Shown here piece after piece: positions 1 through 13,108 of a stretch of 13,108 bases of DNA (the stretch's first letter is position 1; each line of letters starts with the position of its first letter). The stretch is taken from sequence record NZ_CP044494.1; one strand, written 5' to 3'. Position numbers and translations under genes: made by a program. Below the pieces are notes generated by a model, which saw only the letters and a program-made list of their open reading frames with translations, searched no databases and was not told the origin of the DNA. Origin of the DNA: a plasmid.

Positions 1-1
1 T

Positions 2-46
2 GTTGCCTTTTGGAATTGGGATAGAAAGAATTATTTTGTGAGGTAG
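2..46 (+). CDS. 3-prime end of the rep gene, identical to 9071..9115. Its start lies before the window because the unit is repeated.
   Basis: Translates VAFWNWDRKNYFVR then stop, identical to the C-terminus of the 339-aa Rep ORF at 8096..9115. Confidence 0.6.
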   Translation, partial: VAFWNWDRKNYFVR

Positions 47-49
47 CTG

Positions 50-460
50 ATGAGTAAAACAGTATCAGAATTAGCTCAAGAATTGGGAGTTAGTAGGCAG
101 TATCTTAATCGGATTTTATCGCAAAATAATCTCGGTCGAAAAAAAGGGAATAAAAAAGTAGTTTCCGATATGGACGAGAAAGTACTCATATCAATACTTG
201 AGGGCAATATTGGAAACCAAAAAACGGAAACTAAAACGGAAACAAAAACATTAGTTTCCAATATGTCTTTAAGCTCAAGTGAGATAAGGAATTGTGCTAA
301 ACTACCAGTTAAGATGTTGCTGATTAAGACGAGCAATAGACTGTGTCGGCTCGTCTGTCTTTCGGTAATCGAAAGACAGTTTTTGGGGAGGGAAATCTAT
401 GAGTTACATGGTTGCAAGAATGCAGAAGATGAAAGCTGGCAATTTGGGAGGAGCTTTTAA
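50..460 (+). CDS. Putative helix-turn-helix DNA-binding protein directly downstream of rep and coupled to it. Function unknown. The 3-prime third of the ORF runs through the oriT/terminator hairpins and the mob start, so the true product may be shorter.
   Basis: The ATG lies 3 nt after the rep stop, with GAGG 8 nt upstream. The N-terminus SELAQELGVSRQYLNRIL is HTH-like and is followed by a lysine-rich stretch. An in-frame tandem repeat TETKTETK is encoded by aaaacggaaac repeats at 226..252. Confidence 0.45.
   Translation: MSKTVSELAQELGVSRQYLNRILSQNNLGRKKGNKKVVSDMDEKVLISILEGNIGNQKTETKTETKTLVSNMSLSSSEIRNCAKLPVKMLLIKTSNRLCRLVCLSVIERQFLGREIYELHGCKNAEDESWQFGRSF
325..398 (+). promoter_or_regulatory. 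Candidate oriT and mob promoter region. Nested inverted repeats lie immediately upstream of the MobM-like relaxase start.
   Basis: gacgagc(328-334)...gctcgtc(349-355) is a 7-bp IR. ctgtctttcg(355-364)/cgaaagacag(370-379) is a perfect 10-bp hairpin. The region holds a GTGT-containing core (agactgtgtcgg) and sits directly 5-prime of mob, as in MobV-family plasmids where oriT precedes mob. Confidence 0.4.
355..386 (+). terminator. Perfect 10-bp stem, 5-nt loop and a T5 run. This could be the rho-independent terminator of the rep-orf transcript and/or the oriT IR.
   Basis: ctgtctttcg gtaat cgaaagacag ttttt, seen directly in the sequence. Confidence 0.4.
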
Positions 461-518
461 GCATAATGAACGTGTTTTTGAGACGCACTCAAATAAAGAT
501 ATAGACCCGAGCGCTTAG
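399..518 (+). pseudogene. 5-prime stub (39 codons) of a MobM-like MobV relaxase gene. It is truncated at the AvaI junction with the erm fragment, and the stop codon comes from the inserted DNA.
   Basis: Translates MSYMVARMQKMKAGNLGGAFKHNERVFETHSNKDIDPSA then stop. This is near-identical to the MobM (pMV158) N-terminus as I recall it, including the catalytic His in AFKHNER. The RBS ggggaggg lies 7 nt upstream. The AvaI site cccgag is at 506-511. Confidence 0.8.
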
Positions 519-534
519 TGGGAATTTGTACCCC

Positions 535-666
535 TTATCGATACAAATTCCCCGTAGGCGCTAGGGACCTCTTTAGCTCCTTGGAAGCTGTCAGTAGTAT
601 ACCTAATAATTTATCTACATTCCCTTTAGTAACGTGTAACTTTCCAAATTTACAAAAGCGACTCAT
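535..666 (-). CDS. Small ORF of 43 aa from its best start. It is translationally coupled to the ermB stop, and its function is unknown.
   Basis: The ATG is at 664-666 on the minus strand, 4 nt after the ermB stop. The RBS GGAGG is formed by the last ermB codons (gggaggaaataa). Product MSRFCKFGKLHVTKGNVDKLLGILLTASKELKRSLAPTGNLYR. The ORF-track version (to 726) starts further upstream inside ermB. Confidence 0.35.
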   Translation of the reverse strand: MSRFCKFGKLHVTKGNVDKLLGILLTASKELKRSLAPTGNLYR

Positions 667-670
667 AGAA

Positions 671-1407
671 TTATTTCCTCCCGTTAAATAATAGATAACT
701 ATTAAAAATAGACAATACTTGCTCATAAGTAACGGTACTTAAATTGTTTACTTTGGCGTGTTTCATTGCTTGATGAAACTGATTTTTAGTAAACAGTTGA
801 CGATATTCTCGATTGACCCATTTTGAAACAAAGTACGTATATAGCTTCCAATATTTATCTGGAACATCTGTGGTATGGCGGGTAAGTTTTATTAAGACAC
901 TGTTTACTTTTGGTTTAGGATGAAAGCATTCCGCTGGCAGCTTAAGCAATTGCTGAATCGAGACTTGAGTGTGCAAGAGCAACCCTAGTGTTCGGTGAAT
1001 ATCCAAGGTACGCTTGTAGAATCCTTCTTCAACAATCAGATAGATGTCAGACGCATGGCTTTCAAAAACCACTTTTTTAATAATTTGTGTGCTTAAATGG
1101 TAAGGAATACTCCCAACAATTTTATACCTCTGTTTGTTAGGGAATTGAAACTGTAGAATATCTTGGTGAATTAAAGTGACACGAGTATTCAGTTTTAATT
1201 TTTCTGACGATAAGTTGAATAGATGACTGTCTAATTCAATAGACGTTACCTGTTTACTTATTTTAGCCAGTTTCGTCGTTAAATGCCCTTTACCTGTTCC
1301 AATTTCGTAAACGGTATCGGTTTCTTTTAAATTCAATTGTTTTATTATTTGGTTGAGTACTTTTTCACTCGTTAAAAAGTTTTGAGAATATTTTTATTTT
1401 TGTTCAT
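671..1407 (-). pseudogene. ermB: ermB 23S rRNA adenine N6-methyltransferase, copy 1. It carries a 1-bp deletion in codons 5-6 relative to copy 2, so only an N-truncated 221-aa ORF from an internal Met remains.
   Basis: Protein matches ErmB, including the SAM-binding motif [12 protein letters not shown]. At 1391-1400 copy 1 reads tttttatttt where copy 2 reads ttttatatttt. From the ATG at 1407 the frame reads [11 protein letters not shown] then stop. Confidence 0.85.
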
Positions 1408-1454
1408 GTAATCACTCCTTCTTAATTACAAATTTTTAGCATCTAATTTAACTT

Positions 1455-1500
1455 CAATTCCTATTATACAAAATTTTAAGATACTGCACTATCAACACAC
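1455..1500 (-). promoter_or_regulatory. ermB promoter with a vestigial leader. The leader peptide and attenuator are deleted, which predicts constitutive MLS resistance.
   Basis: On the minus strand the sequence reads ttttgtataatagg, an extended -10 (TGnTATAAT). Only about 50 nt lie between the -10 and the ermB ATG. These hold a 6-codon mini-ORF (atg cta aaa att tgt aat taa) and the SD aggagtga. Inducible erm genes carry a 27-36 aa leader. Confidence 0.5.
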
Positions 1501-1732
1501 TCTTAAGTTTGCTTCTAAGTCTTATTTCCATAACTTCTTTTACGTTTCCGCCATTCTTTGCTGTTTCGATTTTTATGATATGGTGCAAGTCAGCACGAAC
1601 ACGAACCGTCTTATCTCCCATTATATCTTTTTTTGCACTGATTGGTGTATCATTTCGTTTTTCTTTTTGTGCGCCTAAATTTCCCACAATCACTCACTTC
1701 TTTCTATTTCTTCTTATTCTTATTTTATCATC

Positions 1733-1778
1733 AACAATCACAAATCACTTGTGATTTGTGATAAGTGATTTGTGATTA
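1733..1778. repeat. Perfect palindrome tcacaaatcac-tt-gtgatttgtga followed by a direct repeat gtgatttgtgatt.
   Basis: Seen directly in the sequence. It lies between the ermB upstream region and the topoisomerase fragment and looks like an operator or recombination site. Confidence 0.45.
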
Positions 1779-1784
1779 ATATAT

Positions 1785-1812
1785 AAAAGCCCTCTTTAAA
1801 GGGCTTTTATGT
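1785..1812. terminator. Bidirectional rho-independent terminator. It sits at the 3-prime end of the topoisomerase fragment.
   Basis: aaaagccc tctttaaa gggctttt is an 8-bp stem flanked by A-runs and T-runs on both sides. The minus-strand ORF stops at 1810-1812. Confidence 0.55.
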
Positions 1813-2328
1813 TTATTTTGAGAAAGATATAAAATCAATATATCCCTTTTCTCCGATTTTTACAACGGCATTGTAGGACTTTCTATCTTTCGTTTTGATT
1901 CCTTTTACCAGGGTTTCTTTTCCCTCTAGTAATTCTTTTACATTTGTTTTGGTGAGTTTTTTCTTTCTAAAATGTTCAGCTAAAGTAAACTTACATTCAG
2001 GATAATTTGAACAACCATAAAACGATTTTTTTAATACAATATTGTTGCCACACTTAGGACATTTTCCTACAATACTTTTTTCTGCTTCTTTTTCTTTCTG
2101 TTCCTGGTAATCAGAAAAATTTAGTTTTTCTATATCGTTAGGTACAGCTTCCAGTAAATGAACAATGAATTTTTTGATATTCGTAATAAAGTTCTCTTGA
2201 TTGCCTTCTCTTTTACCGATTTTTTTTAAATACGTTTCCCATTTAGCCGTCATTTCAGCACTCGTTAAAAGGTGCTGACTTTCAACTGCCTGGCACAATA
2301 ATTTTCCTTTTTCAGTTACAACAAGCTT
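1813..2328 (-). CDS. 3-prime fragment of a type IA DNA topoisomerase gene (C-terminal Zn-ribbon domain). It was co-cloned with erm and is truncated at the HindIII site.
   Basis: Contains CPKCGNNIVLKKSFYGCSNYPECKF, a C4 zinc-ribbon typical of topoisomerase I/III C-termini. The reading frame stays open from the HindIII site (KLVVTEKGKL...) with no start codon, so the gene is incomplete at its 5-prime end. Confidence 0.5.
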   Translation of the reverse strand, partial: KLVVTEKGKLLCQAVESQHLLTSAEMTAKWETYLKKIGKREGNQENFITNIKKFIVHLLEAVPNDIEKLNFSDYQEQKEKEAEKSIVGKCPKCGNNIVLKKSFYGCSNYPECKFTLAEHFRKKKLTKTNVKELLEGKETLVKGIKTKDRKSYNAVVKIGEKGYIDFISFSK

Positions 2329-2379
2329 TAATGCGGTAGTTTATCACAGTTAAATTGCTAACGCAGTCAGGCACCGTGT
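2327..2379 (+). promoter_or_regulatory. The -10 half of the tet promoter (tttaat) and the tetA 5-prime UTR. It is separated from its -35 by the whole Gram-positive insert.
   Basis: tttaatgcggtagtttatcacagttaaattgctaacgcagtcaggcaccgtgt atg matches the recalled pBR322 sequence. The cognate TTGACA is at 6549-6554 on the other side of the insert. Confidence 0.7.
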
Positions 2380-3570
2380 ATGAAATCTAACAATGCGCTC
2401 ATCGTCATCCTCGGCACCGTCACCCTGGATGCTGTAGGCATAGGCTTGGTTATGCCGGTACTGCCGGGCCTCTTGCGGGATATCGTCCATTCCGACAGCA
2501 TCGCCAGTCACTATGGCGTGCTGCTAGCGCTATATGCGTTGATGCAATTTCTATGCGCACCCGTTCTCGGAGCACTGTCCGACCGCTTTGGCCGCCGCCC
2601 AGTCCTGCTCGCTTCGCTACTTGGAGCCACTATCGACTACGCGATCATGGCGACCACACCCGTCCTGTGGATCCTCTACGCCGGACGCATCGTGGCCGGC
2701 ATCACCGGCGCCACAGGTGCGGTTGCTGGCGCCTATATCGCCGACATCACCGATGGGGAAGATCGGGCTCGCCACTTCGGGCTCATGAGCGCTTGTTTCG
2801 GCGTGGGTATGGTGGCAGGCCCCGTGGCCGGGGGACTGTTGGGCGCCATCTCCTTGCATGCACCATTCCTTGCGGCGGCGGTGCTCAACGGCCTCAACCT
2901 ACTACTGGGCTGCTTCCTAATGCAGGAGTCGCATAAGGGAGAGCGTCGACCGATGCCCTTGAGAGCCTTCAACCCAGTCAGCTCCTTCCGGTGGGCGCGG
3001 GGCATGACTATCGTCGCCGCACTTATGACTGTCTTCTTTATCATGCAACTCGTAGGACAGGTGCCGGCAGCGCTCTGGGTCATTTTCGGCGAGGACCGCT
3101 TTCGCTGGAGCGCGACGATGATCGGCCTGTCGCTTGCGGTATTCGGAATCTTGCACGCCCTCGCTCAAGCCTTCGTCACTGGTCCCGCCACCAAACGTTT
3201 CGGCGAGAAGCAGGCCATTATCGCCGGCATGGCGGCCGACGCGCTGGGCTACGTCTTGCTGGCGTTCGCGACGCGAGGCTGGATGGCCTTCCCCATTATG
3301 ATTCTTCTCGCTTCCGGCGGCATCGGGATGCCCGCGTTGCAGGCCATGCTGTCCAGGCAGGTAGATGACGACCATCAGGGACAGCTTCAAGGATCGCTCG
3401 CGGCTCTTACCAGCCTAACTTCGATCATTGGACCGCTGATCGTCACGGCGATTTATGCCGCCTCGGCGAGCACATGGAACGGGTTGGCATGGATTGTAGG
3501 CGCCGCCCTATACCTTGTCTGCCTCCCCGCGTTGCGTCGCGGTGCATGGAGCCGGGCCACCTCGACCTGA
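2380..3570 (+). CDS. tetA: Tetracycline efflux MFS transporter TetA, class C, 396 aa.
   Basis: Full-length match to pBR322/pACYC184 TetA(C) (MKSNNALIVILGTVTLDAVGIG...). GC-rich, with a 12-TM profile. Confidence 0.97.
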   Translation: MKSNNALIVILGTVTLDAVGIGLVMPVLPGLLRDIVHSDSIASHYGVLLALYALMQFLCAPVLGALSDRFGRRPVLLASLLGATIDYAIMATTPVLWILYAGRIVAGITGATGAVAGAYIADITDGEDRARHFGLMSACFGVGMVAGPVAGGLLGAISLHAPFLAAAVLNGLNLLLGCFLMQESHKGERRPMPLRAFNPVSSFRWARGMTIVAALMTVFFIMQLVGQVPAALWVIFGEDRFRWSATMIGLSLAVFGILHALAQAFVTGPATKRFGEKQAIIAGMAADALGYVLLAFATRGWMAFPIMILLASGGIGMPALQAMLSRQVDDDHQGQLQGSLAALTSLTSIIGPLIVTAIYAASASTWNGLAWIVGAALYLVCLPALRRGAWSRATST

Positions 3571-4073
3571 ATGGAAGCCGGCGGCACCTCGCTAACGGAT
3601 TCACCACTCCAAGAATTGGAGCCAATCAATTCTTGCGGAGAACTGTGAATGCGCAAACCAACCCTTGGCAGAACATATCCATCGCGTCCGCCATCTCCAG
3701 CAGCCGCACGCGGCGCATCTCGGGCAGCGTTGGGTCCTGGCCACGGGTGCGCATGATCGTGCTCCTGTCGTTGAGGACCCGGCTAGGCTGGCGGGGTTGC
3801 CTTACTGGTTAGCAGAATGAATCACCGATACGCGAGCGAACGTGAAGCGACTGCTGCTGCAAAACGTCTGCGACCTGAGCAACAACATGAATGGTCTTCG
3901 GTTTCCGTGTTTCGTAAAGTCTGGAAACGCGGAAGTCCCCTACGTGCTGCTGAAGTTGCCCGCAACAGAGAGTGGAACCAACCGGTGATACCACGATACT
4001 ATGACTGAGAGTCAACGCCATGAGCGGCCTCATTTCTTATTCTGAGTTACAACAGTCCGCACCGCTGCCGGTA

Positions 4074-4166
4074 GCTCCTTCCGGTGGGCGCGGGGCATGA
4101 CTATCGTCGCCGCACTTATGACTGTCTTCTTTATCATGCAACTCGTAGGACAGGTGCCGGCAGCGC
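4074..4166 (+). repeat. Direct duplicate of the internal tetA segment 2981..3073. This is the known pACYC184 construction scar.
   Basis: Exact 93-nt identity with 2981..3073, seen directly. Confidence 0.85.
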
Positions 4167-4220
4167 CCAACAGTCCCCCGGCCACGGGGCCTGCCACCAT
4201 ACCCACGCCGAAACAAGCGC
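4163..4220 (-). repeat. Inverted duplicate of the internal tetA segment 2789..2846, part of the pACYC184 scar. It is followed by pBR322 tet-downstream DNA.
   Basis: The reverse complement of 2789..2846 matches 4163..4220 exactly. It generates the chimeric spurious ORFs 4030..4248(-) and 4084..4338(+). Confidence 0.85.
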
Positions 4221-4603
4221 CCTGCACCATTATGTTCCGGATCTGCATCGCAGGATGCTGCTGGCTACCCTGTGGAACACCTACATCTGTATTAACGAAG
4301 CGCTAACCGTTTTTATCAGGCTCTGGGAGGCAGAATAAATGATCATATCGTCAATTATTACCTCCACGGGGAGAGCCTGAGCAAACTGGCCTCAGGCATT
4401 TGAGAAGCACACGGTCACACTGCTTCCGGTAGTCAATAAACCGGTAAACCAGCAATAGACATAAGCGGCTATTTAACGACCCTGCCCTGAACCGACGACC
4501 GGGTCGAATTTGCTTTCGAATTTCTGCCATTCATCCGCTTATTATCACTTATTCAGGCGTAGCAACCAGGCGTTTAAGGGCACCAATAACTGCCTTAAAA
4601 AAA

Positions 4604-5263
4604 TTACGCCCCGCCCTGCCACTCATCGCAGTACTGTTGTAATTCATTAAGCATTCTGCCGACATGGAAGCCATCACAAACGGCATGATGAACCTGAATC
4701 GCCAGCGGCATCAGCACCTTGTCGCCTTGCGTATAATATTTGCCCATGGTGAAAACGGGGGCGAAGAAGTTGTCCATATTGGCCACGTTTAAATCAAAAC
4801 TGGTGAAACTCACCCAGGGATTGGCTGAGACGAAAAACATATTCTCAATAAACCCTTTAGGGAAATAGGCCAGGTTTTCACCGTAACACGCCACATCTTG
4901 CGAATATATGTGTAGAAACTGCCGGAAATCGTCGTGGTATTCACTCCAGAGCGATGAAAACGTTTCAGTTTGCTCATGGAAAACGGTGTAACAAGGGTGA
5001 ACACTATCCCATATCACCAGCTCACCGTCTTTCATTGCCATACGGAATTCCGGATGAGCATTCATCAGGCGGGCAAGAATGTGAATAAAGGCCGGATAAA
5101 ACTTGTGCTTATTTTTCTTTACGGTCTTTAAAAAGGCCGTAATATCCAGCTGAACGGTCTGGTTATAGGTACATTGAGCAACTGACTGAAATGCCTCAAA
5201 ATGTTCTTTACGATGCCATTGGGATATATCAACGGTGGTATATCCAGTGATTTTTTTCTCCAT
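4604..5263 (-). CDS. cat: Chloramphenicol acetyltransferase, type A-1 (Tn9), 219 aa.
   Basis: [46 protein letters not shown]... ending [28 protein letters not shown], with the catalytic His in HHAVCDG. Confidence 0.97.
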
Positions 5264-5350
5264 TTTAGCTTCCTTAGCTCCTGAAAATCTCGATAACTCA
5301 AAAAATACGCCCGGTAGTGATCTTATTTCATTATGGTGAAAGTTGGAACC
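5264..5350 (-). promoter_or_regulatory. cat promoter and RBS region.
   Basis: On the minus strand the sequence reads ...cggcacgtaagaggttccaactttcaccataatgaaataagatcactaccgggcgtattttttgagttatcgagattttcaggagctaaggaagctaaaATG. This is the canonical Tn9 cat upstream region. Confidence 0.6.
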
Positions 5351-5486
5351 TCTTACGTGCCGATCAACGTCTCATTTTCGCCAAAAGTTGGCCCAGGGCT
5401 TCCCGGTATCAACAGGGACACCAGGATTTATTTATTCTGCGAAGTGATCTTCCGTCACAGGTATTTATTCGGCGCAAAGTGCGTCG

Positions 5487-5630
5487 GGTGATGCTGCCAA
5501 CTTACTGATTTAGTGTATGATGGTGTTTTTGAGGTGCTCCAGTGGCTTCTGTTTCTATCAGCTGTCCCTCCTGTTCAGCTACTGACGGGGTGGTGCGTAA
5601 CGGCAAAAGCACCGCCGGACATCAGCGCTA
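5487..5630 (+). mobile_element. insA: IS1 terminal remnant of about 144 bp. It carries the terminal inverted repeat and the first 28 codons of insA (GTG at 5542), truncated at the junction with p15A DNA.
   Basis: ggtgatgctgccaacttactgatttagtgtatgatggtg is an IS1 end. The frame reads [29 protein letters not shown], then a junction-derived stop. Confidence 0.7.
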
Positions 5631-5889
5631 GCGGAGTGTATACTGGCTTACTATGTTGGCACTGATGAGGGTGTCAGTGAAGTGCTTCATGTGGCAGGAG
5701 AAAAAAGGCTGCACCGGTGCGTCAGCAGAATATGTGATACAGGATATATTCCGCTTCCTCGCTCACTGACTCGCTACGCTCGGTCGTTCGACTGCGGCGA
5801 GCGGAAATGGCTTACGAACGGGGCGGAGATTTCCTGGAAGATGCCAGGAAGATACTTAACAGGGAAGTGAGAGGGCCGCGGCAAAGCCG

Positions 5890-6400
5890 TTTTTCCATAG
5901 GCTCCGCCCCCCTGACAAGCATCACGAAATCTGACGCTCAAATCAGTGGTGGCGAAACCCGACAGGACTATAAAGATACCAGGCGTTTCCCCCTGGCGGC
6001 TCCCTCGTGCGCTCTCCTGTTCCTGCCTTTCGGTTTACCGGTGTCATTCCGCTGTTATGGCCGCGTTTGTCTCATTCCACGCCTGACACTCAGTTCCGGG
6101 TAGGCAGTTCGCTCCAAGCTGGACTGTATGCACGAACCCCCCGTTCAGTCCGACCGCTGCGCCTTATCCGGTAACTATCGTCTTGAGTCCAACCCGGAAA
6201 GACATGCAAAAGCACCACTGGCAGCAGCCACTGGTAATTGATTTAGAGGAGTTAGTCTTGAAGTCATGCGCCGGTTAAGGCTAAACTGAAAGGACAAGTT
6301 TTGGTGACTGCGCTCCTCCAAGCCAGTTACCTCGGTTCAAAGAGTTGGTAGCTCAGAGAACCTTCGAAAAACCGCCCTGCAAGGCGGTTTTTTCGTTTTC
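5890..6400 (-). ncRNA. RNA II pre-primer. Ends are approximate. It is transcribed on the minus strand toward the RNA/DNA switch near 5890.
   Basis: Inferred from ColE1 and pBR322 topology. The plus strand here corresponds to the pBR322 top strand. Confidence 0.45.
6294..6397 (+). ncRNA. RNA I antisense copy-control RNA of p15A.
   Basis: acaagttttggtgactgcgctcctccaagccagttacctcggttcaaagagttggtagctcagagaaccttcgaaaaaccgccctgcaaggcggtttttt is collinear with pBR322 RNA I. It has three stem-loops and a terminal hairpin-T-run terminator. Confidence 0.6.
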
Positions 6401-6548
6401 AGAGCAAGAGATTACGCGCAGACCAAAACGATCTCAAGAAGATCATCTTATTAATCAGATAAAATATTTCTAGATTTCAGTGCAATTTATCTCTTCAAAT
6501 GTAGCACCTGAAGTCAGCCCCATACGATATAAGTTGTAATTCTCATGT

Positions 6549-6573
6549 TTGACAGCTTATCATCGATAAGCTT
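6549..6573 (+). promoter_or_regulatory. Orphaned -35 half of the tet promoter (ttgaca), ending at the HindIII cloning junction.
   Basis: tttgacagcttatcatcgataagctt, then MobM-homologous DNA in frame. Confidence 0.7.
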
Positions 6574-7376
6574 TTTGGCATGAAAAAGAGTTTGCTGATA
6601 TGTTTGAAGTTCAATCTCCGATACGTGAAACAACTAACCGAGAAAAAATGGACTGGTTAAGAAAACAGTACCAAGAAGAGCTGAAAAAACTAGAATCGTC
6701 TAAAAAGCCCCTAGAAGACGATTTAAGCCATTTAGAAGAGTTGCTTGATGAAAAGACCAAGGAATATATTAAAATCGATTCTGAGACCTCTGAGAGGCTC
6801 TCAGAGCTATCTAAAGCTGAGGGATATATAAATACCTTAGAAAATTATTCGAAGAGCTTAGAAGCGAAAATAGAGCGTTTAGAGCGCGAGGGGCTGAAAT
6901 TAGAAAAACTAAAAACACAAATAGCTGACCTAAAAATCATGTCTGAGAAAGAACTAGCGGCTATTACCCCTAAAAAAGGCGTGTTCGGTAAAGAATATGT
7001 GGAATTGACTAAAGAGCAGTTTGAAGAATTTAAAGGGCTGATATACCGAAGCAGAAACCTTGTTCATCAAAAAGAGCTAGAGAATGAGCAATTAAGGCGG
7101 ATAGTGCCTCTGAGACGCTCTAAAAACGGTTTTGAAGCGAGTTTGGAACGAGCTAAAGAAAAAAGTAAGGGAGAGAGCATAGAGCGTCTTAGGAACGAAA
7201 ATAGAGCGCTTAGAAGTGAAAACTCAGTTTTGAGACAGCAAAATGACAAAATGCTAGGAAAACTGAAAGAGTTTATGCCAGATAAAGCCTTAAAAAATTT
7301 TATATCAGAGTTAAGAGCTATTCAGCCAATCGTAAGGGTAGTTAAACGAGTGATTGAAAAAGGGCTAGGCCTTTGA
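6570..7376 (+). pseudogene. 3-prime fragment of the MobM-like relaxase gene (268 codons, the C-terminal coiled-coil domain). It resumes in frame at the HindIII site. There is an internal Met at 6600 with a weak RBS.
   Basis: AFWHEKEFADMFEVQSPIRETTNREKMDWLRKQYQEELKKLESSKKPLEDDLSHLEELLD... is near-identical to the MobM C-terminal half as I recall it. It is heptad-rich and highly charged. An in-frame TAA from the vector lies immediately upstream. Confidence 0.8.
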
Positions 7377-7379
7377 GCG

Positions 7380-7515
7380 ATTTATGCCGTGAAAGCTAAT
7401 TGACAATAAGCAAGGGCAAAGTACGCTAGGACGTGACGAGCCGAAAGGCTTTAGCGTTTCGAGCCGACACGGACAAAGGACGTCCGCCCTTGGTTACTTG
7501 TTGTCAATTAGACCA
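7380..7515 (+). other. Single-strand origin of ssoA type.
   Basis: The RSB-like motif tttatgccgtgaaag is at 7383-7397. A long imperfect inverted repeat aattgacaataagcaaggg...cccttggttacttgttgtcaatt spans the region. The conserved CS-6 hexamer tagcgt (7452-7457) lies at the central loop. Confidence 0.6.
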
Positions 7516-7529
7516 TGGAATAAAGTAAG

Positions 7530-7545
7530 CGGACATGGTATAATA
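7530..7545 (+). promoter_or_regulatory. Extended -10 promoter candidate (tggtataat) upstream of a small ORF.
   Basis: The -10 at 7536-7544 matches TGnTATAAT. No good -35 is present. Confidence 0.35.
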
Positions 7546-7600
7546 GCTAGGTCGCAACGTTCTTTCGCTAAGTTACGAACTTAGATTGGAGGTGAGCGCT

Positions 7601-7711
7601 GTGAAGACTTTCCTAGAACTTGTTTTGATACCTTTTGTGGTTGGCGTTGCTGCAGAGGTAAGTGCTGATTGGTTGATTCGGTATGTTCGAAACAAACGCG
7701 ACAAAAATTAA
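7601..7711 (+). CDS. Small hydrophobic peptide ORF of 36 aa with a GTG start. It may be a copy-control or leader element.
   Basis: Strong SD ggaggtga lies 8 nt upstream of the GTG. Product VKTFLELVLIPFVVGVAAEVSADWLIRYVRNKRDKN. A terminator follows. Confidence 0.3.
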   Translation: MKTFLELVLIPFVVGVAAEVSADWLIRYVRNKRDKN

Positions 7712-7740
7712 CCTGAGTTCTTTTTGAGGACAAAAAAGAA

Positions 7741-7771
7741 AGACAGTAGTTCCAGCTACTGTCTTTTTTTG
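7741..7771 (+). terminator. Rho-independent terminator.
   Basis: agacagtag ttccag ctactgtct tttttttg is a perfect 9-bp stem followed by a T7 run. Confidence 0.6.
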
Positions 7772-7901
7772 CGTTGTGCTATTCGTTTCCTAGAACTTCT
7801 AGCGTTAAAATTATTATACCACGTTTGGATTTAGAAAGTCAAAATTTGAGGTTTTAGGGGTGAATTTTTCGTGAAACGAAAAAGAGGGCTGAAAAGCCCT
7901 T

Positions 7902-8011
7902 AAAAACCCATGCGTAGCAAGGGTTTTTTCTTATCTTGATACATATAGAAATAATGAGTTTTTTTATTTTCTTGTTTTAAAGCACCTCAAACCCTTGATA
8001 TTGCTGGGTTT
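7902..8011 (+). other. Double-strand origin region of the pC194 family. Two CTTGATA nick-motif copies sit beside hairpins.
   Basis: ttcttatcttgatacatatag (7928-7948) matches the pC194-type nick region, with CTTG/ATA at 7935-7941. Hairpin aaaaaccc-N11-gggttttt is at 7902-7928. A second hairpin aaaccc-ttgatattgct-gggttt (7989-8011) holds a second CTTGATA in its loop. Confidence 0.55.
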
Positions 8012-8030
8012 TTAGGTAACAAAAAAGCCC

Positions 8031-8059
8031 TTGCAATTTAATAAAATAAAGTTTATAAT
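8031..8059 (+). promoter_or_regulatory. rep promoter.
   Basis: ttgcaa, a 17-nt spacer, then tataat. Confidence 0.5.
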
Positions 8060-8095
8060 TTAAGTGTCCAATTTAAAATAATAAACTTAGGAGAA

Positions 8096-9115
8096 TTGCA
8101 GGAACTTTTTTATATACTCAAAAAAATTTTTTTGCAAGAAAATTATAACATGACAGGTACTGAAAATCAAGTCTTTAAGGACTATTCTAAGAATGGCAAA
8201 GATAGAAAGTGGCGAGAACGCAAGTTAAAAAATATTGAGCTTGCTGGTCGTTTAGAGCGTTTAGGATATCGTTCGTTTGAACGGGTCTATCAATGTGCCG
8301 AAGTGTTGAAGTTTATCGAACAACAAGACGGCACGAAAAAACTCTATCAGTCTTATTTTTGCAAAAATAAGCTCTGCCCAATTTGTAACTGGAGACGGTC
8401 AATGAAGTATGCTTATCAAGCTGAATTAGTGGTAAATGAAGCAATGAAACGCTATCCAAAAGGTCGCTTTCTCTTTTTGACCTTGACGATTAAGAACATT
8501 AGTGGTGAAAAATTAAATAAATCAATTTCAGAAATAGGGCGAGCTTTTAATCGTCTTATGAAATACAAGAAAGTCGATAAAAATGTTATTGGCTATTTGC
8601 GAGCCACTGAGGTAACTTATTCAACTGAGCATGAGAATTATCACCCTCATTTGCATGTATTGTTATTTGTGAAATCTAGCTATTTTACTGGAAATAATAC
8701 AAATTACATTAGCCAAGAAGAATGGACGAAACTATGGGCTAAGGCGATGAAATTGGATTATACACCTGTAGTTGATATTCGAACCGTCAAAGCTCATAAA
8801 CGTAAAAACTTGAAGTCAGCTATTATCGAAACAGCTAAATATCCTGTTAAGCCTTTTGATGTAGATACAGAAGATGTGACATTATTCTCTGAAATGGTCA
8901 AAGAACGGATAACAGAAGATTTAACGAATGGTTTGCACCGAAAAAGGCAGATTGGTTTTGGAAAGTTGTTCAAGAAAATCAAGGCGGAGTTAGCTCTTGA
9001 TGATGTCGAAGAAGGGAATCTTGTTCAGACCGGAGCAGAAGAATCTGCAGAAAGTACTGGTCGTGAAATTGTTGCCTTTTGGAATTGGGATAGAAAGAAT
9101 TATTTTGTGAGGTAG
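8096..9115 (+). CDS. rep: Rolling-circle replication initiator of the pC194/pUB110 family. The start is uncertain: TTG at 8096 with AGGAGA only 2 nt upstream. The alternatives are TTG at 8132 or ATG at 8150.
   Basis: CKNKLCPICNWRR corresponds to pC194 CKNRFCPVCAWRK. The HUH motif YHPHLHVLLFV corresponds to NPHFHVLIAV. The active-site motif ETAKYPVK corresponds to EMAKYSGK, with Glu and Tyr conserved. NYNMTGTENQVF aligns with pC194 CYNMEKYTEKKQRNQVF, so the start is upstream of Met19. Confidence 0.85.
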   Translation: MQELFYILKKIFLQENYNMTGTENQVFKDYSKNGKDRKWRERKLKNIELAGRLERLGYRSFERVYQCAEVLKFIEQQDGTKKLYQSYFCKNKLCPICNWRRSMKYAYQAELVVNEAMKRYPKGRFLFLTLTIKNISGEKLNKSISEIGRAFNRLMKYKKVDKNVIGYLRATEVTYSTEHENYHPHLHVLLFVKSSYFTGNNTNYISQEEWTKLWAKAMKLDYTPVVDIRTVKAHKRKNLKSAIIETAKYPVKPFDVDTEDVTLFSEMVKERITEDLTNGLHRKRQIGFGKLFKKIKAELALDDVEEGNLVQTGAEESAESTGREIVAFWNWDRKNYFVR

Positions 9116-9118
9116 CTG

Positions 9119-9529
9119 ATGAGTAAAACAGTATCAGAATTAGCTCAAGAATTGGGAGTTAGTAGGCAGTATCTTAATCGGATTTTATCGCAAAATAATC
9201 TCGGTCGAAAAAAAGGGAATAAAAAAGTAGTTTCCGATATGGACGAGAAAGTACTCATATCAATACTTGAGGGCAATATTGGAAACCAAAAAACGGAAAC
9301 TAAAACGGAAACAAAAACATTAGTTTCCAATATGTCTTTAAGCTCAAGTGAGATAAGGAATTGTGCTAAACTACCAGTTAAGATGTTGCTGATTAAGACG
9401 AGCAATAGACTGTGTCGGCTCGTCTGTCTTTCGGTAATCGAAAGACAGTTTTTGGGGAGGGAAATCTATGAGTTACATGGTTGCAAGAATGCAGAAGATG
9501 AAAGCTGGCAATTTGGGAGGAGCTTTTAA
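9119..9529 (+). CDS. Copy 2 of the HTH ORF, identical to 50..460.
   Basis: Identical sequence at offset 9069. Confidence 0.45.
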   Translation: MSKTVSELAQELGVSRQYLNRILSQNNLGRKKGNKKVVSDMDEKVLISILEGNIGNQKTETKTETKTLVSNMSLSSSEIRNCAKLPVKMLLIKTSNRLCRLVCLSVIERQFLGREIYELHGCKNAEDESWQFGRSF

Positions 9530-9587
9530 GCATAATGAACGTGTTTTTGAGACGCACTCAAATAAAGATATAGACCCGAGCGCTTAG
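9468..9587 (+). pseudogene. Copy 2 of the mob 5-prime stub.
   Basis: Identical to 399..518. Confidence 0.8.
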
Positions 9588-9603
9588 TGGGAATTTGTAC
9601 CCC

Positions 9604-9735
9604 TTATCGATACAAATTCCCCGTAGGCGCTAGGGACCTCTTTAGCTCCTTGGAAGCTGTCAGTAGTATACCTAATAATTTATCTACATTCCCTTTAGTA
9701 ACGTGTAACTTTCCAAATTTACAAAAGCGACTCAT
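9604..9735 (-). CDS. Copy 2 of the ermB-coupled small ORF.
   Basis: Identical to 535..666. Confidence 0.35.
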   Translation of the reverse strand: MSRFCKFGKLHVTKGNVDKLLGILLTASKELKRSLAPTGNLYR

Positions 9736-9739
9736 AGAA

Positions 9740-10477
9740 TTATTTCCTCCCGTTAAATAATAGATAACTATTAAAAATAGACAATACTTGCTCATAAGTA
9801 ACGGTACTTAAATTGTTTACTTTGGCGTGTTTCATTGCTTGATGAAACTGATTTTTAGTAAACAGTTGACGATATTCTCGATTGACCCATTTTGAAACAA
9901 AGTACGTATATAGCTTCCAATATTTATCTGGAACATCTGTGGTATGGCGGGTAAGTTTTATTAAGACACTGTTTACTTTTGGTTTAGGATGAAAGCATTC
10001 CGCTGGCAGCTTAAGCAATTGCTGAATCGAGACTTGAGTGTGCAAGAGCAACCCTAGTGTTCGGTGAATATCCAAGGTACGCTTGTAGAATCCTTCTTCA
10101 ACAATCAGATAGATGTCAGACGCATGGCTTTCAAAAACCACTTTTTTAATAATTTGTGTGCTTAAATGGTAAGGAATACTCCCAACAATTTTATACCTCT
10201 GTTTGTTAGGGAATTGAAACTGTAGAATATCTTGGTGAATTAAAGTGACACGAGTATTCAGTTTTAATTTTTCTGACGATAAGTTGAATAGATGACTGTC
10301 TAATTCAATAGACGTTACCTGTTTACTTATTTTAGCCAGTTTCGTCGTTAAATGCCCTTTACCTGTTCCAATTTCGTAAACGGTATCGGTTTCTTTTAAA
10401 TTCAATTGTTTTATTATTTGGTTGAGTACTTTTTCACTCGTTAAAAAGTTTTGAGAATATTTTATATTTTTGTTCAT
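9740..10477 (-). CDS. ermB: ermB 23S rRNA (adenine-N6)-dimethyltransferase, intact and 245 aa long.
   Basis: [44 protein letters not shown]...LLFNGRK. The SD ggagtga lies 7 nt upstream. The leaderless extended -10 promoter is at 10531-10542. Confidence 0.95.
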
Positions 10478-10854
10478 GTAATCACTCCTTCTTAATTACA
10501 AATTTTTAGCATCTAATTTAACTTCAATTCCTATTATACAAAATTTTAAGATACTGCACTATCAACACACTCTTAAGTTTGCTTCTAAGTCTTATTTCCA
10601 TAACTTCTTTTACGTTTCCGCCATTCTTTGCTGTTTCGATTTTTATGATATGGTGCAAGTCAGCACGAACACGAACCGTCTTATCTCCCATTATATCTTT
10701 TTTTGCACTGATTGGTGTATCATTTCGTTTTTCTTTTTGTGCGCCTAAATTTCCCACAATCACTCACTTCTTTCTATTTCTTCTTATTCTTATTTTATCA
10801 TCAACAATCACAAATCACTTGTGATTTGTGATAAGTGATTTGTGATTAATATAT

Positions 10855-10878
10855 AAAAGCCCTCTTTAAAGGGCTTTT
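10855..10878. terminator. Copy 2 of the bidirectional terminator.
   Basis: Identical to 1785..1808. Confidence 0.55.
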
Positions 10879-10882
10879 ATGT

Positions 10883-11398
10883 TTATTTTGAGAAAGATAT
10901 AAAATCAATATATCCCTTTTCTCCGATTTTTACAACGGCATTGTAGGACTTTCTATCTTTCGTTTTGATTCCTTTTACCAGGGTTTCTTTTCCCTCTAGT
11001 AATTCTTTTACATTTGTTTTGGTGAGTTTTTTCTTTCTAAAATGTTCAGCTAAAGTAAACTTACATTCAGGATAATTTGAACAACCATAAAACGATTTTT
11101 TTAATACAATATTGTTGCCACACTTAGGACATTTTCCTACAATACTTTTTTCTGCTTCTTTTTCTTTCTGTTCCTGGTAATCAGAAAAATTTAGTTTTTC
11201 TATATCGTTAGGTACAGCTTCCAGTAAATGAACAATGAATTTTTTGATATTCGTAATAAAGTTCTCTTGATTGCCTTCTCTTTTACCGATTTTTTTTAAA
11301 TACGTTTCCCATTTAGCCGTCATTTCAGCACTCGTTAAAAGGTGCTGACTTTCAACTGCCTGGCACAATAATTTTCCTTTTTCAGTTACAACAAGCTT
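10883..11398 (-). CDS. Copy 2 of the topoisomerase Zn-ribbon 3-prime fragment, truncated at HindIII (11393-11398).
   Basis: Identical to 1813..2328. Confidence 0.5.
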   Translation of the reverse strand, partial: KLVVTEKGKLLCQAVESQHLLTSAEMTAKWETYLKKIGKREGNQENFITNIKKFIVHLLEAVPNDIEKLNFSDYQEQKEKEAEKSIVGKCPKCGNNIVLKKSFYGCSNYPECKFTLAEHFRKKKLTKTNVKELLEGKETLVKGIKTKDRKSYNAVVKIGEKGYIDFISFSK

Positions 11399-11449
11399 TA
11401 ATGCGGTAGTTTATCACAGTTAAATTGCTAACGCAGTCAGGCACCGTGT

Positions 11450-12640
11450 ATGAAATCTAACAATGCGCTCATCGTCATCCTCGGCACCGTCACCCTGGAT
11501 GCTGTAGGCATAGGCTTGGTTATGCCGGTACTGCCGGGCCTCTTGCGGGATATCGTCCATTCCGACAGCATCGCCAGTCACTATGGCGTGCTGCTAGCGC
11601 TATATGCGTTGATGCAATTTCTATGCGCACCCGTTCTCGGAGCACTGTCCGACCGCTTTGGCCGCCGCCCAGTCCTGCTCGCTTCGCTACTTGGAGCCAC
11701 TATCGACTACGCGATCATGGCGACCACACCCGTCCTGTGGATCCTCTACGCCGGACGCATCGTGGCCGGCATCACCGGCGCCACAGGTGCGGTTGCTGGC
11801 GCCTATATCGCCGACATCACCGATGGGGAAGATCGGGCTCGCCACTTCGGGCTCATGAGCGCTTGTTTCGGCGTGGGTATGGTGGCAGGCCCCGTGGCCG
11901 GGGGACTGTTGGGCGCCATCTCCTTGCATGCACCATTCCTTGCGGCGGCGGTGCTCAACGGCCTCAACCTACTACTGGGCTGCTTCCTAATGCAGGAGTC
12001 GCATAAGGGAGAGCGTCGACCGATGCCCTTGAGAGCCTTCAACCCAGTCAGCTCCTTCCGGTGGGCGCGGGGCATGACTATCGTCGCCGCACTTATGACT
12101 GTCTTCTTTATCATGCAACTCGTAGGACAGGTGCCGGCAGCGCTCTGGGTCATTTTCGGCGAGGACCGCTTTCGCTGGAGCGCGACGATGATCGGCCTGT
12201 CGCTTGCGGTATTCGGAATCTTGCACGCCCTCGCTCAAGCCTTCGTCACTGGTCCCGCCACCAAACGTTTCGGCGAGAAGCAGGCCATTATCGCCGGCAT
12301 GGCGGCCGACGCGCTGGGCTACGTCTTGCTGGCGTTCGCGACGCGAGGCTGGATGGCCTTCCCCATTATGATTCTTCTCGCTTCCGGCGGCATCGGGATG
12401 CCCGCGTTGCAGGCCATGCTGTCCAGGCAGGTAGATGACGACCATCAGGGACAGCTTCAAGGATCGCTCGCGGCTCTTACCAGCCTAACTTCGATCATTG
12501 GACCGCTGATCGTCACGGCGATTTATGCCGCCTCGGCGAGCACATGGAACGGGTTGGCATGGATTGTAGGCGCCGCCCTATACCTTGTCTGCCTCCCCGC
12601 GTTGCGTCGCGGTGCATGGAGCCGGGCCACCTCGACCTGA
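11450..12640 (+). CDS. tetA: tetA(C) copy 2, identical to copy 1.
   Basis: Identical ORF at offset 9070. Confidence 0.97.
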   Translation: MKSNNALIVILGTVTLDAVGIGLVMPVLPGLLRDIVHSDSIASHYGVLLALYALMQFLCAPVLGALSDRFGRRPVLLASLLGATIDYAIMATTPVLWILYAGRIVAGITGATGAVAGAYIADITDGEDRARHFGLMSACFGVGMVAGPVAGGLLGAISLHAPFLAAAVLNGLNLLLGCFLMQESHKGERRPMPLRAFNPVSSFRWARGMTIVAALMTVFFIMQLVGQVPAALWVIFGEDRFRWSATMIGLSLAVFGILHALAQAFVTGPATKRFGEKQAIIAGMAADALGYVLLAFATRGWMAFPIMILLASGGIGMPALQAMLSRQVDDDHQGQLQGSLAALTSLTSIIGPLIVTAIYAASASTWNGLAWIVGAALYLVCLPALRRGAWSRATST

Positions 12641-13108
12641 ATGGAAGCCGGCGGCACCTCGCTAACGGATTCACCACTCCAAGAATTGGAGCCAATCAAT
12701 TCTTGCGGAGAACTGTGAATGCGCAAACCAACCCTTGGCAGAACATGATCCTTATCTGCGTCCGCCATCTCCAGCAGCCGCACGCGGCGCATCTCGGGCA
12801 GCGTTGGGTCCTGGCCACGGTGTGCGCATGATCGTGCTCCTGTCGTTGAGGACCCGGCTAGGCTGGCGGGGTTGCCTTACTGGTTAGCAGAATGAATCAC
12901 CGATACGCGAGCGAACGTGAAGCGACTGCTGCTGCAAAAACGTCTGCGACCTGAGCAACAACATGAATGGTCTTCGGTTTCCGTGTTTCGTAAAGTCTGA
13001 AACGCGGAAGTCCCCTACGTGCTGCTGAAGTTGCCCGCAACAGAGAGGAACCAACCGGTGATACCACGATACTATGACTGAGAGTCAACGCCATGAGCGG
13101 CCTCATTT

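Follow-up and report, generated by a model that had tools for sequence, protein, structure and literature searches.

The DNA analysed here, a stretch of 13,108 bp referred to as the window, very probably represents an untrimmed contig of the plasmid pVA838, an E. coli-Streptococcus shuttle vector, with a unit of 9,070 bp. The frameshift in the first of its two ermB copies would then be a consensus error, and the plasmid would carry a single, intact ermB.

The plasmid of Streptococcus mutans MD was published with a length of 13,108 bp, a GC content of 43% and "homology to pVA838", and was deposited as CP044494 (PMC7427186). The window has the same length and a GC content of 43.99%. The published GC value fits truncation rather than rounding, which is only a weak mismatch. 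Given the identical length and the description, the window is probably this deposited plasmid. When sequenced, strain MD was a "relatively uncharacterized" isolate. For its assembly, Canu v1.7 was run with default settings on raw PacBio Sequel II reads (SRR11818585), which resulted in a chromosome (CP044493) and a plasmid. Neither polishing nor trimming of a circular overlap is described for this assembly (PMC7427186).

The two ends of the window are copies of each other. Positions 1-4035 (copy 1) recur at 9070-13108 (copy 2), and this direct repeat begins at the first base of the window and ends at its last base, which is the hallmark of an untrimmed overlap. With a circle of 9,070 bp, the window amounts to 1.445 turns. 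Up to position 1394, the copies are offset by 9069, and beyond it by 9070. The preliminary description had placed this shift at the ermB lesion, and agreement at the offset of 9069 indeed ends at 1394. Upon global alignment, the copies differ by eight indel events (10 bases) and by no substitution. The ermB site is thus not the sole disagreement, and seven further indel events had been left out of the preliminary description. These seven (nine gap positions) are clustered at 12747-13046, i.e. 361 to 62 nt from the window end, in what is a low-quality assembly tail of copy 2. Compared with the corresponding region of copy 1 (3676-3973), copy 2 has six inserted and three deleted bases in this cluster. 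Overall, copy 1 matches the reference sequences (see below) except for a 1-nt deletion after position 1394, while copy 2 is correct at ermB and is degraded in its last 361 nt.

As written, ermB of copy 1 (671..1407, minus strand) is frameshifted. The deletion site (1391..1400) reads TTTTTATTTT, while the homologous positions of copy 2 (10460-10470) read TTTTATATTTT. One base is missing after position 1394, and its counterpart in copy 2 is A10464. On the plus strand, this is an A between 1394 and 1395. On the coding strand, it is the T of ermB codon 5 (ATA), so that AAAAATATAAAAT is converted into AAAAATAAAAAT, and the reading frame is shifted from codon 5 onwards. Translation from the ATG at 1407 (minus strand) proceeds for 11 codons and then reaches a stop. 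The remaining long ORF (671-1336, minus strand) has a TTG start and codes for 221 aa, corresponding to Erm(B) residues 25-245. The preliminary description had read both sequences, the frameshift with its 11 residues and the N-truncated 221-aa ORF correctly. It had also attributed the lesion to an AT homopolymer context, but the site is no homopolymer in the strict sense: what was lost is a lone, non-repeated T flanked by A runs, and the length of the homopolymers is unchanged.

Membership in Erm(B) was assigned when a full-length match to the NCBIfam model NF012220 exceeded its curated cut-off (525 bits). The product of ermB in copy 2 (9740-10477, minus strand; 245 aa) scores 565.7 bits and covers model positions 1-245 of 245. 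It is thus a member of the Erm(B) 23S rRNA (adenine2058-N6)-methyltransferases, and the earlier call of an intact gene in copy 2 holds. The remnant from copy 1 scores 511.5 bits, which is below the cut-off, and it covers only positions 25-245. In other Erm methyltransferases and in KsgA, a conserved N-terminal QNF motif contributes to the active site. In the Erm(B) from the window, this motif comprises residues 9-11. If the frameshift were true, the product would lack residues 1-24, and a dead allele would be expected.

External references identify the erroneous copy at each of the eight sites. Copy 2 (9575-11398), including its ermB, is identical to pAMbeta1 (NC_013514.1) over 1,824 nt (100%). 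The equivalent region of copy 1 (506-2328) differs from pAMbeta1 by one gap only, which is the ermB deletion. For the vector backbone, a 4,245-bp pACYC184-type record was used as the reference. Positions 2323-6574, which belong to copy 1 and to the unique part of the window, are 100.000% identical to this reference over 4,252 nt. The corresponding part of copy 2 (11393-13108) has no mismatches but nine gap positions, all of them within 361 nt of the window end.

The replicon and ermB parts were also compared with short-read contigs of sister vectors (L003-L007, consisting of Logan assemblies and one NCBI record). No mismatches to the corrected unit were found across these parts. They differ solely at two HindIII sites, where engineered fill-ins add 4 nt each (AAGCTAGCTT). 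In the 8,003-bp contig from SRR4063620 (L003), the ermB start is the canonical TTTTATATTTTT, which encodes the 11 N-terminal residues, and the fill-ins are at 1035-1038 and 4179-4182. The other four (L004-L007) carry the same replicon and ermB module, again with both HindIII sites filled in. In all of them, part of pACYC184 is replaced by an origin that resembles those of ColE1/pUC and has about 78-84% identity to p15A. These sequences are engineered pVA838 descendants in other public datasets.

Taken together, the references cover every base of the unit, so that the first pass holds exactly one error (that in ermB) and the second pass holds seven. All disagreements are of the type expected from sequencing errors. 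Because errors occur in both copies, are restricted to indels and are clustered at the contig end, they point to an unpolished long-read consensus rather than to allelic divergence. The intact 245-aa version in copy 2 is the true state of ermB.

These observations suggest the following scenario. The assembler (Canu, with PacBio reads) very probably ran beyond the closure point and passed 1.445 times round the 9,070-bp circle, so that the first 4,035 and the last 4,039 bases would represent the same DNA twice. At ermB codon 5, the unpolished consensus of the first pass would have lost a base in error, and the seven indel events towards the close of the second pass, where coverage runs out, would be errors of a like kind. 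The real plasmid would have one ermB, and that gene would be intact. The location of the ermB deletion, 1.4 kb inside the contig and away from the visibly degraded end, counts against an error.

Public sequences were searched for the deletion allele. The ermB start is matched by 1,257 of the 72,556 plasmids in PLSDB, and for the canonical query, the best match has at least 99% identity in 520 PLSDB plasmid records. A 50-nt query centred on the deletion had no match among the 72,556 PLSDB plasmids. This query leaves only 25 exact bases on each side for the canonical allele, which is less than the 28-nt seed, so that the canonical allele cannot be seeded. An exact 35-mer of the deletion allele had zero matches in viral, genome (GTDB representatives) and metagenome contig collections. 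A lone PLSDB record with at least 99% identity was considered as a carrier of the deletion allele but was rejected: the 50-nt query found nothing, so that its alignment was a partial one. No record in PLSDB covers at least 80% of the 9,070-bp unit.

In a public gene collection, 584 blocks contain exactly this N-truncated Erm(B) product of 221 aa. Eight of the corresponding loci (L008-L015) were read. Three have N-gaps in the scaffold, and one has a junction to non-ermB sequence adjoining IS66-type transposase genes. The remaining four have a CAA->TAA change at codon 9, an A4->A3 contraction, an ATG->ATC change and an ATG->AT- change (one each). The codon-5 deletion was found in none of these eight loci. 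We thus rejected the notion that the 221-aa protein is a recurrent natural allele that includes the codon-5 lesion, since the loci read have other causes. The 221-aa protein is a generic fallback ORF that appears when the first 24 codons are damaged, and it is no evidence that the lesion in copy 1 is real. Calls of a "truncated erm(B)" are thus a mixture of artefacts and, possibly, of real lesions.

The preliminary description had left two alternatives for the dead copy, a read or assembly error and genuine heterogeneity. For the latter, it would have to be assumed that S. mutans MD has a mixed pVA838 population, part of which carries a 1-bp deletion that kills ermB, and that each pass through the overlap captured one of the alleles. 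Such heteroplasmy is plausible in principle, as the other 5' lesions of ermB (CAA->TAA, A4->A3, lost ATG) leave the same 221-aa ORF. Erythromycin was absent during growth of the culture, so that an inactivated ermB would not be counter-selected and a dead gene would be tolerated (PMC7427186). However, the other seven disagreements within the overlap are also indels only and are demonstrable errors when compared with pACYC184. There are no substitutions whatever between the copies, and the allele occurs in none of the PLSDB, viral, genome and metagenome collections searched. Furthermore, deletions in AT-rich, low-complexity sequence are typical residual errors of an unpolished PacBio CLR consensus, and the ermB lesion is of this type. 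We consider heteroplasmy improbable.

An assembly error is favored because the overlap is untrimmed, the differences are restricted to indels, errors occur in both copies and the allele is absent from the collections searched. On the same grounds, the first of the two alternatives is supported, and the evidence strongly disfavors a dead ermB allele, given that there are no substitutions and that the allele has not been seen elsewhere. We infer that a PacBio/Canu consensus error, not a minority allele, is the cause of the lesion. The dead ermB copy is almost certainly not a biological feature.

Even less credit can be given to a physical multimer, or to a 13.1-kb circle with a 4-kb duplication, where two diverged ermB copies would reside on one molecule. 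Rolling-circle plasmids with foreign inserts form multimers, and the replicon is of the Rep_1 rolling-circle type. The sequence was also deposited as a 13,108-bp plasmid (PMC7427186). However, the bounds of the repeat are exactly the first and the last base, as in an untrimmed circular contig, and for a circle of 13.1 kb, linearisation exactly at the novel junction would have to be assumed. The window comprises 1.445 units, which is not a whole number, and the unit of 9,070 bp is close to the size of about 9.2 kb published for pVA838. Indels within pACYC184 sequence, as found in the tail of copy 2, are not credible biologically. A real partial duplication of 13.1 kb was rejected for the coincidence of the repeat with both contig ends and for the degraded tail of copy 2. 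Phase variation, a slippage tract or a programmed frameshift was also rejected: a single T is lost without any change in the length of a repeat tract, and the variant does not recur, being absent from the 1,257 ermB-bearing plasmids and from the three contig collections.

Judged from its component parts and its restriction map, the plasmid is very probably the shuttle vector pVA838. Macrina et al. reportedly described pVA838 in 1982 as a HindIII fusion of pACYC184 and pVA749, the latter being said to consist of pVA380-1 and the erm fragment of pAMbeta1. The size of pVA838 was reportedly about 9.2 kb. In the window, pACYC184 is likewise joined via HindIII to a streptococcal erm plasmid.

The erythromycin resistance determinant is derived from pAMbeta1 (1,824 nt, 100%). 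It is located on an AvaI-HindIII fragment (506..2328, with the AvaI site CCCGAG at 506), which carries ermB, the gene for the omega repressor (1454-1693, minus strand; PF07764, 121.9 bits) and the 3' end of a topoisomerase gene (1813-2298, minus strand). Upstream of the omega gene, at a distance of 43-84 nt (1736-1777), there are six heptads, some direct and some inverted, of the AATCACA/TGTGATT type. They look like omega operator repeats and may have been inherited from pAMbeta1.

The pACYC184 part is complete (2323..6574; tet(C), catA1 and p15A origin), and AAGCTT is found at both junctions. The tet(C) gene has a full ORF of 396 aa (2380-3570, plus strand), and its ATG is 57 nt downstream of the HindIII junction (AAGCTT at 2324). 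In pBR322 and pACYC184, the HindIII site is within the tet promoter. Because the junction falls into this promoter, expression of tet(C) is probably poor or absent, although the gene would be called as a resistance gene. Parts of the tet(C) coding sequence are repeated downstream of the gene, namely a 94-nt direct repeat (2980-3073 and 4073-4166) and a 58-nt perfect inverted repeat (2789-2846 and 4163-4220). Both are identical in the pACYC184 reference and are thus the vector's own, not an assembly problem.

The streptococcal rolling-circle replicon part (6575..9069, continuing in 1-505, plus strand) codes for a Rep of the Rep_1 family (8096-9115, plus strand) and for a 136-aa ORF (50-460, also found at 9119-9529). 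This part is 81-87% identical to small Streptococcus plasmids of the MobV/Rep type and may correspond to the pVA380-1 replicon. A remnant of a mob gene, 39 codons with the N-terminus of Mob_Pre, begins at about 399, crosses the AvaI junction and reaches a stop at about 518 (plus strand). Downstream of the HindIII junction is a 258-aa ORF (6600-7376, plus strand). It has no Pfam hit, and related plasmids have this region annotated as MobV relaxase. It appears that the relaxase gene was split when the erm fragment was cloned in.

The corrected unit is composed of window positions 1-1394, an A and positions 1395-9069. It has 9,070 bp (as against about 9.2 kb) and is cut once by XbaI (6470) and once by SphI (2857). 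XbaI and SphI serve as cloning sites of pVA838 (PMC3522447).

The value of these results is in curation, not in biology. At 13,108 bp, the deposited record exceeds the true circle (9,070 bp) by 4,038 bp. In this record, ermB, tet(C), the omega gene, the gene for the truncated topoisomerase and the 136-aa ORF each seem to be present twice, while there is in truth one of each, and a spurious ermB pseudogene is included. When resistance-gene surveys or plasmid databases take in such records, genes would be over-counted and a false "truncated erm(B)" would be reported. The isolate S. mutans MD harbours a man-made cloning vector, pVA838.

The erm(B) of pAMbeta1 (NC_013514.1) is constitutive and does not have an attenuation leader. 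Over 1,824 nt, it is matched at 100% identity by copy 2 together with the region upstream; the match aligns in one piece, and there is no leader peptide gene annotated beneath it. Copy 1 differs in that one base in codon 5 is missing. With pVA838, the plasmid shares the entire pACYC184 at HindIII, a 1.8-kb ermB fragment from pAMbeta1 with AvaI and HindIII at its ends, a streptococcal Rep_1 replicon whose mob gene is truncated, and a closely similar size (9,070 bp and about 9.2 kb). The deposited record differs by its 4,038 additional bp and its eight indel errors. Untrimmed overlaps of circular replicons, as obtained from Canu and in other long-read assemblies, have a terminal direct repeat that extends from the first to the last base. 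Their copies differ by indels only, and errors gather at the contig end. The window shares all of these characteristics and has no differences, so that it is a textbook instance of such an overlap.
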